DNA of 12,476 nucleotides from a virus (IMGVR_UViG_3300012167_000333:1-12476), one strand, 5' to 3'; shown: positions 3,118 through 10,268, counted from the stretch's first letter. Notes: generated from the letters alone by a model not told the origin. Numbers and translations are program-made.

Positions 3118-3146
3118 TTGACACTCGGGCCCTGATTCGCTATAGT
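3118..3146 (+). promoter_or_regulatory. Sigma70-like promoter carrying the conserved GATTCGCTA motif (copy 1)
   Basis: TTGACA (3118-3123), 17-nt spacer, TATAGT (3141-3146). The spacer ends in CTGATTCGC, so GATTCGCTA spans 3134-3142. It sits between the terminator and the first gene of the downstream operon. Confidence 0.6.
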
Positions 3147-3150
3147 GTGT

Positions 3151-3429
3151 ATGGAGGCTGCCAAGTTGTCGACCGCCAAACTCCTCGCGCTCATCTTCAT
3201 CGCGCTCCTTCCGGGCGGGCTCTTCATGCTCGTTGGCGCGTTCATGTGGCGAAGAGCTAAGGTCGACCGCGTCATCGTCCTCAATGCGCCGCGTGAGCGC
3301 GATCAGGCTGGCGCCTACCTCCTCTACCCCCTGGAAAGTTGGCACAAGTACGCGCGAAGGTGCTATCCTTTGCGCTACTGGCTGACCGAGACGATCCCCG
3401 CCCGCTTCCGACGCAAGGAGTCACTTTGA
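3151..3429 (+). CDS. Small membrane protein (one predicted TM helix), hypothetical
   Basis: ATG at 3151. Hydrophobic stretch LLALIFIALLPGGLFMLVGAFMW followed by basic residues. GC3 is high in the first half. The stop TGA (3427-3429) overlaps the next gene's TTG start. The ATG lies only 4 nt after the -10 hexamer, so the transcript may be leaderless; the start is uncertain. Confidence 0.45.
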   Translation: MEAAKLSTAKLLALIFIALLPGGLFMLVGAFMWRRAKVDRVIVLNAPRERDQAGAYLLYPLESWHKYARRCYPLRYWLTETIPARFRRKESL

Positions 3430-3839
3430 AGCGCATGTACTATCACAGCTTCCCCCACGCACCAACGGAGCTGGTCTCCGGTATCTCAGCAGCTGCTCAG
3501 ATCCCCTCCATCGTCGGCGCCTATGTCGGCACCTGGGACGATTCCCTCTACCTCGACATCTTCCAGTGTGAGGACTTCCGCCTCAAGGCGTCCCACCTGG
3601 AGATCATCGCTGAGGTCTGCGGCGTGTCGCTGGAGGAGATGGTGGTCGGCCCCGGGATCGACGACGATCACATGTCCGTCACGCTGGAGACGACCTGCTT
3701 CGATTTCAGCGACATGAAGGACGTGCGGACGAAGCCCGTTAGTATCTTGTTCGAGGTCGACTCCGACGGTCCGGAGCGCCTCAAGCGCGTGCTCGACCGC
3801 ATTCGCGAGGAGATCCGCAAGCTGACCCCGAACGGGTAG
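3426..3839 (+). CDS. Hypothetical protein
   Basis: AAGGAG (3415-3420) lies 5 nt upstream of an in-frame TTG at 3426 (TTGA overlap with the upstream stop). An alternative ATG is at 3435. High GC3 and an acidic protein with no recognised motif. The track ORF start at 3339 overlaps the upstream gene and is unlikely. Confidence 0.6.
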   Translation: MKRMYYHSFPHAPTELVSGISAAAQIPSIVGAYVGTWDDSLYLDIFQCEDFRLKASHLEIIAEVCGVSLEEMVVGPGIDDDHMSVTLETTCFDFSDMKDVRTKPVSILFEVDSDGPERLKRVLDRIREEIRKLTPNG

Positions 3840-3842
3840 CTC

Positions 3843-4109
3843 GTGTTCACGACCCCAGCGCCCAACTGTCCCCGCCCGAATTGCGGCGGGACCTTGCGCA
3901 AGGTGCGCAAGGACGGCCGCTTCCACGTCCACCGCGGCGTGCACATCAATCTTCCGTCGAGCATCGTGATCCCGCGGTGCGGGAAGTGCGAAGGGGACGT
4001 TATCTTGGAGGAGTTGCGGGATGTCATCACCGAGGTCCTGGAGCAGGAGTTCCAGGAGCACGCGGAGTGGATCATGGAGGCTTTCGCGAGCGTCAAGGAG
4101 AAGAAATGA
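3843..4109 (+). CDS. Zinc-ribbon protein (YgiT/MqsA-type N-terminal zinc-finger pattern)
   Basis: GTG at 3843, 3 nt after the upstream stop. High GC3. CPRPNCGG...(about 30 aa)...CGKCEG forms a CxxxC/CxxC pair flanking a beta-hairpin-like segment, as in YgiT-type zinc ribbons. The stop overlaps the next start (ATGA). Confidence 0.6.
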   Translation: MFTTPAPNCPRPNCGGTLRKVRKDGRFHVHRGVHINLPSSIVIPRCGKCEGDVILEELRDVITEVLEQEFQEHAEWIMEAFASVKEKK

Positions 4110-4561
4110 CCGGAACTATCGTCGTTTTCGTCGTCGCAGCCCTCGCCATCGCAGGGCTGATCGTCTTCCTGGTATCACGTGCGCGCAAGAAGGGCGCCAC
4201 GTCACCGCCGCCGCCGGACGATCAGGAGCGCGCCATCCAGGTCGCGTGGGTCGAGACGTACGGTATGGATCGCAAGGTTGCGCCCTTCATCACCAAGGTG
4301 ATGGGGAGTCAGCTGAATTGTCGCAACGGCACCGGCTGGACGGTCGGAGCTGAGTGCGTTGCTGGGATGTCGTGGGCCGATCTGAACGCGTGCGCCGTCG
4401 CCTGGCCAACGTTGGAGACTAAGTTCTCTGAGACGGCTTTCGCACATGAGCTGCTGCACGCCAAGGGCTGGCGCGAGGGGAGGGCGACGGACCACTTCAG
4501 TCCCGAGTTCCAGGCTGAGGTCGCGCGTGCGAACGAGGCGCTCCGGAAGGCGGGGCTGTGA
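4106..4561 (+). CDS. Membrane-anchored HExxH (zincin-like) protein, hypothetical
   Basis: AAGGAG (4095-4100) lies 5 nt upstream of the ATG at 4106. N-terminal TM helix IVVFVVAALAIAGLIVFLV, then RARKKG and a Pro-rich linker. HELLH motif in TAFAHELLHAKGW. The Arg-rich N-terminal part of track ORF 3881..4561 is rejected. Confidence 0.65.
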   Translation: MTGTIVVFVVAALAIAGLIVFLVSRARKKGATSPPPPDDQERAIQVAWVETYGMDRKVAPFITKVMGSQLNCRNGTGWTVGAECVAGMSWADLNACAVAWPTLETKFSETAFAHELLHAKGWREGRATDHFSPEFQAEVARANEALRKAGL

Positions 4562-5322
4562 TCGAGGGTTTGAAGGAGGGCGAGTTGGTCGTGTTGGCCT
4601 CGCCCTCGAAGCATCGCTGGCAGGTTGCGCCGCGTCCCGGAAACGACTCGGTTGTCTTCACGTCCGAGCTGTCGTTCGAGGAGCACTACCGGCGCCTCCA
4701 CGGCATGTGGTCGAGGTACGGTGGCTTCGATGCTCGTCCGGGCACCGCCATCGACATGATCTTGCAGCTGGCGGCCCAGGAGGCAGTCGAGACCGAACGG
4801 CGCGTCCGCGACATGGTGAACCAGCTGATGTTCACGCCGGACCCGTGGATGATGTCCAACAAGGCCGAGGCCCTGGAGGCGGTGAAGCACTACAAGGGCG
4901 CCAACGCGCGGCTGTTCATCGGGGACAAGGAGGTCAAACCCTTCGACGCCCCCGACGGCGTCATCTACGAGGGCCCCGTGGACGCCCTGGCTGCCGCCAG
5001 GGGCGATGAGGACTCCGATGGGAACCAGGAGTTCAGCGGGCTCGACGAAGACGACGCCGCCGATCCTGGCGTTGGGCCGGCGCCGGATGGCGAAGTCGCG
5101 CTCGCGCCAGGTCTCGTACCCATGTCGTACCCACGCCTCAATCGGGACGTCATCATGAAGACGGACGTCTGCTACGTGTGCGCGACCGGCAGGAGGGTGC
5201 TTTGGCGCTTCGTACGCGGCCCCAAAGATGAAACCCTGACGTGCGAGCCTTGCTTACGTGACCACATGGGCTACGAAATCGACTACACGACCCGGACCCT
5301 GCGAAAGTCTGCCGACATCTAG
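4558..5322 (+). CDS. Hypothetical protein with acidic linker and C-terminal CxxC...CxxC zinc ribbon
   Basis: GTG at 4558 overlaps the upstream stop (GTGA). High GC3. The C-terminus CYVCATG...(about 20 aa)...CEPC is zinc-ribbon-like. Confidence 0.65.
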   Translation: MIEGLKEGELVVLASPSKHRWQVAPRPGNDSVVFTSELSFEEHYRRLHGMWSRYGGFDARPGTAIDMILQLAAQEAVETERRVRDMVNQLMFTPDPWMMSNKAEALEAVKHYKGANARLFIGDKEVKPFDAPDGVIYEGPVDALAAARGDEDSDGNQEFSGLDEDDAADPGVGPAPDGEVALAPGLVPMSYPRLNRDVIMKTDVCYVCATGRRVLWRFVRGPKDETLTCEPCLRDHMGYEIDYTTRTLRKSADI

Positions 5323-9256: not shown

Positions 9257-9338
9257 CTCCCTGATCCCGCGGCGGGCACGCGGCCTTTGAAGCCGCCGAC
9301 GAGGGCTCGACACCTTCTCGGGGATCCAATTTCAAGGA

Positions 9339-9379
9339 GCGGGGCGCGCGCCGAGGTTACATTCCGGCGCGCGCCCCGC
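9339..9379. terminator. GC-rich 15-bp hairpin, putative bidirectional terminator between the tRNA operon (+) and ORF 9382..9756 (-)
   Basis: GCGGGGCGCGCGCCG (9339-9353) and CGGCGCGCGCCCCGC (9365-9379) are perfectly complementary, with an 11-nt loop. It lies 2 nt beyond the stop of the minus-strand ORF and 83 nt beyond the last tRNA. Neither side has a clean U-tract. Confidence 0.55.
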
Positions 9380-9381
9380 GA

Positions 9382-9756
9382 TTACGTCTTCGGCACCCAG
9401 AGCCTGGCTGGGACGCGTTTCGGCCCGGTAGGCACCCTGACGCCATCCGGGCCCGCTCGCCACCGCCCTGGGCGCGGGGAGGGCTTCAGGGTGGCCTTGG
9501 GGTTGGGGACCGGCACGTAGGTCGCCACCGCGCTCCGCTCCTCGTCCGAGCGCCGCACCACGCCGGGCCGGATCGAGGTCCTGGCGAACTTGTAGAAGCG
9601 GTGGTCGCCCCACACTTTGGCCGTGTGGACGCGCATCCACTCGTAGAACTTGCGCGCGCATGTCCCACATCTCCCTACCTTCAGGACGGGATCCCAGTCC
9701 CCGCTGGAGGGGTGGTAGGGCTGCGGGCAGCTGAAGCATTTTGGTTGAGGTTCCAA
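9382..9756 (-). CDS. Hypothetical zinc-ribbon-like protein (CFSC...CGTC)
   Basis: This frame has clearly high GC3 and a normal amino-acid composition. The overlapping 9332..9778 and 9486..9668 frames are Arg/Gly-rich artefacts. It contains two CxxC pairs about 20 aa apart. The only start at the 5' end of the ORF is TTG (9756-9754), and the next Met is 40 codons in, so the start is uncertain. Confidence 0.55.
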   Translation of the reverse strand: MEPQPKCFSCPQPYHPSSGDWDPVLKVGRCGTCARKFYEWMRVHTAKVWGDHRFYKFARTSIRPGVVRRSDEERSAVATYVPVPNPKATLKPSPRPGRWRAGPDGVRVPTGPKRVPARLWVPKT

Positions 9757-10235
9757 TGAGTCTCAATCTATACCACATGCTTAAGACGTGTTCAAGTTGT
9801 TCGAAGGAGCTGGTGTTTGAAGAGTTCCATCAGGATCTTCGTACGGCAGACGGAAGGTCGTACAGTTGCAGGGGCTGCCGGAAGAAGATTCAGAGAAGGT
9901 CGTACGAAAAACGCGGAGAGCGCCATCGTTCGCAAAGTGCAGATTTGAAGCGGGAGCGTCAGAGGGTAGCGCGCGAGTATATCTTGGCCGTGAAGCGGGG
10001 TCCGTGCGCTGATTGTGGGAGAAGTTTCAATCCATGGCAGATGGACTTCGATCATTTGAGGGACAAGAGAATGACGATCGCTCTGATGGCCAGTTCTGGA
10101 TATCGGTTGGAGGTCCTGAAGGAAGAGGTGGGGAAGTGTGAGTTGGTGTGTGCAAATTGCCATCGAGATCGAACCTATAAGAGGAAACAACAGGCGAGAG
10201 GCTTCGATACGCTTTACACCTCCATGGTGGAGTGA
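9756..10235 (+). CDS. HNH homing endonuclease (free-standing)
   Basis: GAGG (9747-9750) lies 5 nt upstream of the ATG at 9756. N-terminal CxxC...CxxC pair. HNH core CADCGRSFNPWQMDFDHLRDK...N...ELVCANCHRDR. GC content and GC3 are visibly lower than in all neighbouring genes. Confidence 0.8.
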   Translation: MSLNLYHMLKTCSSCSKELVFEEFHQDLRTADGRSYSCRGCRKKIQRRSYEKRGERHRSQSADLKRERQRVAREYILAVKRGPCADCGRSFNPWQMDFDHLRDKRMTIALMASSGYRLEVLKEEVGKCELVCANCHRDRTYKRKQQARGFDTLYTSMVE

Positions 10236-10252
10236 TAATCTAAATAGGGATC

Positions 10253-10268
10253 CCGATTCGCTAGAAAT
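10253..10268 (+). promoter_or_regulatory. Conserved GATTCGCTA motif (copy 5) upstream of the protease gene
   Basis: CCCGATTCGCTAGAAATTA, with GATTCGCTA at 10255-10263. It lies 17 nt after the HNH stop and about 20 nt before the GGAGG/ATG of the next gene. There is no good -35 hexamer. Confidence 0.45.

Follow-up and report, generated by a model that had tools for sequence, protein, structure and literature searches.

What reads a nine-base word that recurs ahead of the genes and transfer RNA (tRNA) blocks of a phage? The word, GATTCGCTA, consists of GATTCGC followed directly by TA, and it was found in a stretch of viral DNA of 12,476 nucleotides (nt) (IMGVR_UViG_3300012167_000333:1-12476), here called the window, by which we mean the whole stretch that was analysed. 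An initial annotation had proposed a phage-specific promoter element or, with equal likelihood, an operator or a processing signal. Our comparison with related phages suggests that GATTCGC+TA is probably the core by which a class of promoters is recognised, a class peculiar to one branch of the Mx1-like phages, the family named for Myxococcus phage Mx1. The promoter reading as such is well supported by this comparison, and in three of the window's copies the element appears superimposed on host-type promoters.

The window holds five exact copies of the word, all on the plus strand, in agreement with the initial annotation, which had also quoted their flanks correctly. There is none on the minus strand, and no further copy with one mismatch. 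Chance predicts a mean of 0.05 copies, and none of 200 dinucleotide-preserving shuffles reached five. GATTCGC without TA occurs once in the window, within a tRNA. The five copies are as follows.

3134..3142, +, copy 1, class A composite: TTGACA 3118-3123, 17-nt spacer, TATAGT 3141-3146
6660..6668, +, copy 2, class B: no -35; hexamer TAGATA 6667-6672
7275..7283, +, copy 3, displaced composite: TTGACA 7265-7270, 4 nt, GATTCGC 7275-7281, TAGGAG 7282-7287, TAGAGT 7288-7293
7996..8004, +, copy 4, class A: TTGACA 7980-7985, 17-nt spacer, TAGAGT 8003-8008
10255..10263, +, copy 5, class B: no -35; hexamer TAGAAA 10262-10267

Copies 1, 3, and 4 lie in sigma-70-type promoters with 17-nt spacers, and in a consensus promoter scan these three sites were the best -35/-10 matches of the window (11, 10, and 10 of 12 bases). 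In copies 1 and 4 the spacer ends with the seven bases GATTCGC, and the -10 hexamer starts with the TA that comes next. The motif of copy 3 stands 6 nt nearer TTGACA, so that TAGAGT and not TAGGAG falls at the 17-nt spacing. Copies 2 and 5 have no -35 and no sigma-70-type hexamer. These arrangements bear out the earlier description of three TTGACA-17-TATAGT/TAGAGT promoters, one of them shifted in register, and two copies lacking a convincing -35. They also sustain its argument that the motif is more than a shared spacer, since neighbouring spacer bases vary while the motif is kept, and it stands alone where there is no -35.

Each copy precedes genes or tRNAs. Copy 1 heads a small-gene operon (3151/3166-6661), with a predicted start at 3153, the first G of GGAGG 3153-3157. 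Just 5' of it an intrinsic terminator (3073..3112, +; a 14-bp stem with a T-rich tail) ends the operon of the tail sheath and tail tube genes, so that a new transcription unit begins at copy 1. At copy 2, an ATG (6679) exactly 19 nt past the first G of the motif opens a mini open reading frame (ORF) of 14 codons (6679-6723; MGSHNLRGIMNSSH), 5' of a gene for a PTH2-like protein (6764-7144) and the tRNAs at 7109-7183 and 7188-7264. Copy 3 lies directly 3' of tRNA-Ile (7188-7264) and 5' of a 150-nt untranslated stretch, an ORF (7446-7600), and the tRNAs at 7642-7978. Directly 3' of tRNA-Cys (7903-7978) is copy 4, with a predicted start near 8015, followed by a structured leader and the tRNAs at 8288-8621; a perfect 12-bp inverted repeat (GACTCCCGCCGA / TCGGCGGGAGTC; 8031-8042 / 8073-8084, +) lies in this untranslated leader, with a run of T within its loop. 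Copy 5 stands before a gene for a ClpP-like protease (10285-11142, ATG 10285), and its predicted start, 10274, is the first G of GGAGG 10274-10278. The description of the copies as intergenic and upstream of plus-strand genes or tRNA blocks thus holds in general, the exception being copy 2, which shares two bases with the TGA stop of ORF 6431-6661. The claim that the motif marks every plus-strand transcription unit was too strong: an HNH gene has no copy, the sheath-tube operon begins outside the window, and the clearest exception is a promoter-like TTGACG-17-TAGTCA at 8663-8691 (+), ahead of the block from tRNA-Tyr to tRNA-Arg, which carries no GATTCGC.

The phage of the window is an uncultured myophage with a G+C content (GC) of about 63% and a distant relative of Mx1. 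A megablast search of the whole window against annotated phages gave no nucleotide match, and the link to Mx1 came only from protein search: ORF 4-2514 encodes a tail sheath and ORF 2547-3035 a tail tube, with 45% and 43% amino-acid identity, respectively, to their Mx1 (OR576727) counterparts. The two phages share the layout of sheath, tube, and tRNA region. Short contigs and sequencing runs nearly identical to the window came from soil and freshwater-sediment metagenomes. The following relatives carry GATTCGC+TA sites; tube identities are to the window.

Contig B (IMGVR_UViG_3300011417_000010): 58.2 kb, 63% GC, tube 75% identical, nine sites
L154 (extends L036): 20.7 kb, 61% GC, tube about 50%, seven sites
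L155 (part of a 169-kb contig): 21 kb, 65% GC, with a homologue of the Mx1 sigma-like protein, three sites
L104: short contig, tube 91%, one site
L093: short contig, 65% GC, tube 79%, one site, the variant GATTCGATA

This brings the total to 26 sites, five in the window and 21 in four related contig sets. All 26 lie 5' of, and face, a gene start or a tRNA block, and all lie outside plausible coding sequence; sites that seemed to fall inside ORFs reflect the over-extended 5' ends of a crude ORF caller. The initial annotation would have had the idea fail if the motif were scattered within coding regions or on both strands elsewhere. The intergenic part of that expectation stood, while both strands proved to be occupied, always in the direction of the downstream gene; the restriction to the plus strand is due to gene orientation in the window. 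In contig B, GATTCGC without TA occurs six times, in no case with a clear promoter-like context.

Other routes to relatives yielded little. No viral contig matched the exact pattern of promoter 1. A scan of viral contigs for TTGACA-N10-GATTCGCTA gave 87 stretches, about the chance level, of which only L036 was a true relative. By this comparison three loci with multiple copies (L013, L068, L043) were no relatives, nor do their additional copies resemble a shared promoter system. Scanning metagenomes with the tube protein contributed little more. In L099 a 9-mer repeated many times was considered as a promoter but turned out to be a coding tandem repeat, and a k-mer search for stand-alone words in L156, L099, L098, L113, L114, and L109, each of which offers little sequence, found nothing clear. 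As for the relatives themselves, L154 carries 27 tRNA genes in one array (6814-9989) that is punctuated by GATTCGC sites, as well as a transfer-messenger RNA gene (10750-11088; tag ANDNSYAAPLSAAA), and in contig B the anticodon TCA of one tRNA reads UGA (L095 15101-15175).

An indication of function comes from the distance to the gene. Counting the first G of the motif as 0, a start triplet stands exactly at +19 in nine of the 26 sites, against 0.9 expected (start triplets occupy 3.5% of positions), and GGAG begins between +19 and +22 in eight more. Within the window, GGAGG stands at +19 for the copies at 3134 and 10255, and ATG at +19 for that at 6660. With start codon or GGAG at this fixed distance, transcripts would be leaderless or begin at the Shine-Dalgarno sequence. 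Such geometry is expected if TA represents positions -12/-11 of a sigma-70-family open complex, with the start 7 nt past the hexamer, and it supports an assignment of TA to -12/-11 and of GATTCGC to -19 to -13. An alignment of 24 sites shows a conserved block from -19 to -11 and no conserved column upstream of -20. The proposal of a phage-specific promoter element thus gains support, as the motif is kept at orthologous and non-orthologous promoters alike, co-oriented with the gene, and at a fixed 19 nt from the start codon or Shine-Dalgarno sequence. One orthologous pair is the site before the ClpP-like gene of contig B, which has the same layout as copy 5 (GATTCGC-TAGGAA-ATACAT-GGGAGG).

The sites also divide by the hexamer that TA opens. 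Six of them, class A, have TTGAC at the 17-nt spacing, and in five of these the hexamer ends in T (TATAGT twice, TAGAGT once, TAGACT twice). Among the 20 without TTGAC at that spacing, no hexamer ends in T, the last base being A, G, or C (Fisher p = 9e-5). These 20 include two displaced composites, at 7275 in the window and at 33863 in contig B (TTGACG-TAGA-GATTCGC-TAGAGG-TAATCT), in which TTGAC stands 6 nt nearer to the motif and the 17-nt spacing leads to a second hexamer, one that ends in T. That two lineages have this layout shows the motif to be a module not tied to the register of the -35. To judge from these arrangements, it behaves as an element usable in register on a host-type promoter, out of register beside one, or alone.

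Selection on the word itself is most evident at the promoter that follows the tail-tube terminator. For each lineage we give the -35, the variable spacer, the conserved word, and the hexamer.

Window: TTGACA, ctcgggccct, GATTCGC, TATAGT
L104: TTGACC, gccacgcctg, GATTCGC, TATAGT
L093: TTGACG, ggacgcggga, GATTCGA, TAGACT
Contig B: TTGACG, gatcggcgga, GATTCGC, TAGACT
L113: TTGACG, cccagaggaa, GATTCGA, TAGGAT
L114: TTGACC, ttcgggtcga, GATTCAG, TAGACT
L115: TTGACT, cccggcgta, GATTCAG, TAGAAT
L099: TTGACC, gaataccac, GATTCTGC, TAGAAA
L154: no -35, –, GATTCGC, TATAAG

GATTC (-19 to -15) is kept in the nine lineages, while the other ten bases of the spacer drift. Since this is so even where -35 and -10 are near consensus, the motif is evidently under selection and likely to have a function beyond spacing. 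The word is absent from this position in L098, L100, L109, L096, and Mx1.

Although Mx1 lacks the word at this position, its genome offers an informative comparison. Its early class comprises 36 TTGACn-N16-18-TAnnnT promoters on the minus strand, at 69-122 kb of the record (L101/L102), ahead of many small genes. In 33 of the 36 the spacer contains GATC (as RGATCY, often AGATCCGC or GCGGATCT), against 3.5% of random 17-mers, in varying position and orientation. Six read GATCCGCTA, one base off the window's motif and in the same register, and YGC often precedes TA in this class. We found no published description of the GATC-in-spacer pattern in the literature searched, and the genome announcement of Mx1 contains no promoter analysis. 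A second class comprises about 21 (t)aGATCAAC-N3-4-TA sites between 42971 and 128517 of the record, on either strand, directly 3' of tRNA genes or 5' of genes, with ATG 9-10 nt past TA in eleven of them. Examples are given by record position.

43724, 44256, 44654, 68998, 115766, 125840: (t)aGATCAAC sites of Mx1

From their sequence context these sites look like a stand-alone, leaderless promoter class parallel to class B of the window. Mx1 thus resembles the window in synteny, in a -35-less class with TA-N10-ATG after tRNAs, and in a word beginning with GAT 5' of TA. It differs in that its stand-alone word, GATCAAC, lies 3-4 nt from TA and the GATC word of its host-type promoters floats, whereas the GATTCGC of the window's family is always fused to TA.

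A further motif, YAATCTW (mostly CAATCTT), appears to belong to a different tier of expression. It occurs seven times on the plus strand of the window and never on the minus strand, with about 0.8 expected per strand.

2524, 3947, 6690, 7415, 8086, 9764, 10236, +: YAATCTW copies of the window

The same strand bias is seen in contig B (20 against 1) and L154 (12 against 1). In the window, a copy stands 23 nt before the ATG of the tail-tube gene, and four of the five GATTCGC copies have YAATCTW nearby; the two motifs often occur in tandem. In Mx1 it precedes the portal, sheath, tube, baseplate, and other late genes, and in contig B structural genes as well. A start codon lies exactly 13 nt past the C in eight cases in Mx1, and in 13 in Mx1 and contig B together. 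Given this fixed distance, CAATCT would resemble a -10 hexamer whose second base, A, falls at -11 and whose last, T, falls at -7, and YAATCTW therefore looks like a -35-less "late" promoter hexamer.

A candidate reader for this hexamer is encoded in the family. Mx1 gp3, annotated as a sigma factor, matches sigma-70 region 2 only, and weakly (Pfam, 19.5 bits, under the 24-bit cut-off), with a best match to solved RpoD structures at E = 2e-5. Its homologues number 369, many of them from contigs of 100-180 kb, and the sigma-like protein thus appears widely conserved in the Mx1-like family. Its gene heads a late cluster of helicase, sigma, terminase, and portal. A homologue, P0104, is found on L155 (65% GC), a contig that also carries GATTCGCTA sites, and ahead of the operon containing it stands cATTCGCTATACG, which differs from the motif by one mismatch, an arrangement that fits a cascade. 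In the divergent region 5' of this helicase/sigma-like operon (L155 8135-8205), one-mismatch variants occur on both strands (cATTCGCTATACG, GAATCGCTATACG), each with an ATG about 20 nt past its first base. A tblastn search for the Mx1 sigma-like gene was negative both for the window and for the 58 kb of contig B. YAATCTW retains the two bases recognised by region 2 of sigma factors, A at -11 and T at -7. We therefore consider YAATCTW an equally good or better candidate target for the sigma-like protein, and indeed the likelier one; GATTCGC-TA would then be an earlier tier.

Taken as a promoter core, GATTCGC-TA would direct transcription to begin 19 nt past its first G, giving RNA that is leaderless or starts at the Shine-Dalgarno sequence. 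At class A sites (3134, 7996) it would lie in register within a full host-type TTGACA-17-TAnnnT promoter, with 7275 as a variant displaced by 6 nt; at class B sites (6660, 10255) it would act alone, with no -35 and no T at the last position of the hexamer. Because class B lacks both the -35 and the T at -7, an unmodified primary-sigma holoenzyme should read it poorly, and the most economical reader would be a host polymerase directed by the phage. The reader is thus probably the host core RNA polymerase redirected by a factor of the phage, which might be a sigma, a sigma-modifying protein, or an activator. On this view, class A and displaced sites would act as dual promoters, firing at once with the host sigma and continuing after the switch. 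We tentatively propose, as a possibility that is open to considerable doubt, that GATTCGC-TA is a middle-type switch in which an early phage protein guides the host's core RNA polymerase to a 9-bp element lying directly against -12, with no requirement for a -35 or for T at -7, as one tier of a code running from host-type TTGACA/TAnnnT through GATTCGC-TA to YAATCTW. The conserved sigma-like protein would read YAATCTW, leaving GATTCGC-TA as the early or middle tier of a three-tier cascade. If this were true, Mx1-like transcripts would be built to start at an ATG or a ribosome-binding site. Mx1 itself shows comparable tiers, and the sigma-like gene is common to a large and almost unstudied Mx1-like family, most of it seen on contigs of about 170 kb.

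Such a cascade has a precedent in phage T4, with its early sigma-70 promoters, MotA-box middle promoters, and gp55-dependent late promoters (TATAAATA). Like T4, the phages considered here have several promoter classes in one lytic myophage, a box that makes a -35 unnecessary, promoters of host and phage type that are often superimposed or arranged in tandem before tRNAs and small genes, a short late element confined to the -10 (here YAATCTW), and a divergent phage sigma-like gene. Unlike the MotA box, (a/t)(a/t)(a/t)TGCTTtA near -30 and 11-13 bp 5' of TAnnnT, of which the 24-site alignment shows no trace, the present box abuts -12 and is unrelated in sequence; class B also lacks the TAnnnT that T4 middle promoters keep, and no MotA or AsiA homologue was found in the sampled DNA. 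Promoters of the T7 type provide a poorer comparison. The T7 consensus is GACTCACTATAGGGAGA, and only one copy resembles it (L154 13713, GATTCGCTATAGGGAGA, 15 of 17 bases); there the geometry puts the start 8 nt further downstream. Across the copies only 9-10 bp are conserved (motif positions 0-8 and 10), as opposed to about 23 bp (-17 to +6) with a fixed initiating purine in T7-type promoters, the presumed T7-type +1 may be A, C, G, or T, and the would-be +1 to +6 vary. No single-subunit RNA polymerase domain was found in the sampled ORFs (contig B, 50 ORFs).

Other explanations rank, by likelihood, from a host-only extended -10 element through an operator to a methylation switch or an RNA-level signal. 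It is unlikely, though conceivable, that GATTCGC is an unusually long extended -10 read by the primary-sigma holoenzyme of the host, through sigma region 3 or the beta-prime zipper, an element that would strengthen all these promoters, the -35 being dispensable and no phage factor involved. The element does abut the -10 hexamer as TGn does, with G at -14; -35-less copies exist, as among extended -10 promoters; three copies are perfect host-type promoters; and there is the frequent YGC before TA in the early promoters of Mx1. Yet the element comprises seven bases (-19 to -13), and the TG expected at -15/-14 is absent, all copies having CG there. Primary sigma factors almost universally require T at -7, in extended -10 promoters too, but it is found in none of the 20 hexamers of sites outside class A. 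The displaced copies (7275 and in contig B) do not share the register of the -35/-10 pair on which the host would rely, and the pattern is not enriched in any bacterial taxon. In 185,579 bacterial and archaeal genomes, TTGAC-N11-GATTCGCTAKAGT had 35 matches, the number estimated for chance, scattered among Selenomonas, Nitrospirota, Acidobacteriota, Bacillota, Spirochaetes, and others, with at most one per genome. None was in Myxococcota, and no taxon was found to use GATTCGC systematically. All 35 look like real promoters, because the search pattern contains the promoter consensus. The scan gives no support for a host effect, though such an effect is compatible with it. In the literature searched, the motif appeared only as part of unrelated primers and nothing described it, and a search of the start-site and promoter literature on Myxococcus xanthus produced no usable consensus.

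An operator, at which a phage or host repressor would overlap core promoters and shut them off as at the stoperators of mycobacteriophage L5, strikes us as improbable. Stoperators too are short, asymmetric, repeated sites in short intergenic regions with one orientation relative to transcription, as are all 26 sites here, and the perfect conservation of the 9 bp, the unfixed register at 7275, and the floating of the related Mx1 GATC word in the spacer in both orientations, as an occluding operator could, would all suit that role. Stoperators, however, serve the repressor of a temperate phage and have no fixed relation to starts, whereas a fixed 19 nt to start codon or Shine-Dalgarno sequence is a property of start-site positioning; no repressor, repressor-like domain, or integrase was found in the sampled 58 kb of contig B, and Mx1 is lytic. 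At class B sites, moreover, there is no other recognisable promoter to block. Given this, and a geometry that fits a transcription start, we do not share the view that an operator or a processing signal is as likely as a promoter. A methylation switch seems very improbable: promoter activity would be coupled to adenine methylation, distinguishing incoming from newly replicated DNA. GANTC and GATC are the two classic sites of orphan adenine methyltransferases, and GATTC fits the former while GATC fills 33 of 36 early spacers in Mx1, but the central N is T in 26 of 26 sites, conservation extends past GANTC into CGCTA, GANTC is unbiased in the window (44 against 42 expected), and the 50 ORFs in 58 kb of contig B include no methyltransferase domain. 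No better are the prospects of a signal at the RNA level, whether a processing site between tRNAs and genes in read-through RNA or a translation enhancer before the Shine-Dalgarno sequence or ATG. An exact TTGACA at 17-nt spacing would be meaningless in RNA, a strong terminator lies 5' of the copy at 3134, a copy before a tRNA block could enhance no translation, and no Rfam family matches the motif; what speaks for such a signal is the position of several copies directly 3' of tRNA ends (7275, 7996; L154 8951, 10017) and the fixed distance to the Shine-Dalgarno sequence or ATG.

Several points weigh against a phage-specific promoter class read by a redirected host polymerase. Most of the sites come from four related contig sets and are hence not fully independent. 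None of the RNA runs contains the window, so that the start at +19 is read from geometry only. Chance could partly explain the absence of T in class B: the probability of 0 in 20 varies with the frequency assumed for T, from about 1% to a few percent. The 50 ORFs in 58 kb of contig B, from a genome of probably about 170 kb, include no sigma, helix-turn-helix, or MotA/AsiA-like Pfam domain. In Mx1, GATCAAC lies 3-4 nt from TA, a register unlike that of GATTCGC, which makes homology of the two elements uncertain. Finally, a host holoenzyme with primary-sigma preferences of its own might tolerate such promoters.

Apart from the motif, the region 3' of the tube gene contains small genes without a Pfam match, a PTH2-like peptidyl-tRNA hydrolase gene, and 15-16 tRNA genes, beyond which lie the HNH gene and then the ClpP-like protease gene; SLOG/DprA-like and UDG-like genes are on the minus strand. 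Four of these features call for comment.

6764-7144, +: PTH2-like gene
7109-7183, +: tRNA found by Rfam (40.2 bits, above the gathering score) and missed by ARAGORN
8366-8440, +: tRNA-like stretch between tRNA-Phe and tRNA-Pro (33 bits against the tRNA-Sec model, under threshold)
9756-10235, +: HNH endonuclease gene (in contig B, local 29604-30032, -)

The PTH2-like gene has no canonical start codon 5' of GTG 6764, yet its protein similarity seems to begin earlier. The tRNA at 7109-7183 has the anticodon loop CCUAAAA, in which position 33 is a C, and it covers the final codons of the PTH2-like ORF together with the stop. The stretch at 8366-8440 may be a decayed or unusual tRNA. The HNH gene, which has a low GC content at third codon positions, precedes the promoter of the ClpP-like gene in the window and lies between the tube gene and promoter 1 in contig B; with this difference in placement and its composition, it looks like a mobile insertion beside promoters. 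Word counts show that CTAG is scarce in the window (12 against 42 expected), four of the 12 falling within the motif (GCTAGA), and that L093 has no CTAG in 10.6 kb, its motif variant being GATTCGATAG. GATC and TCGA are over-represented about twofold or more in counts of the whole window and L093.

A phage-specific promoter consensus is a well-known kind of feature. What is new here is a set of seven bases abutting -12, their use without -35 and without T at -7, and their superposition on host-type promoters, together with a design in which transcripts would be leaderless or begin at the Shine-Dalgarno sequence, and the place of the element in an apparent three-motif code common to a large family of phages that has been little studied. 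In environmental sequences the Mx1-like phages make up a large family, of which the annotated phages searched included only Mx1. With a readable promoter code their genes could be sorted into temporal classes by sequence alone, and start-codon calls would improve because many of the genes appear to be leaderless. Such a code also points to a regulatory factor worth isolating and would supply compact, possibly infection-inducible promoters for genetics in Myxococcota. More broadly, these promoters offer a natural test of how far -10 recognition can shift upstream, away from the canonical T at -7.

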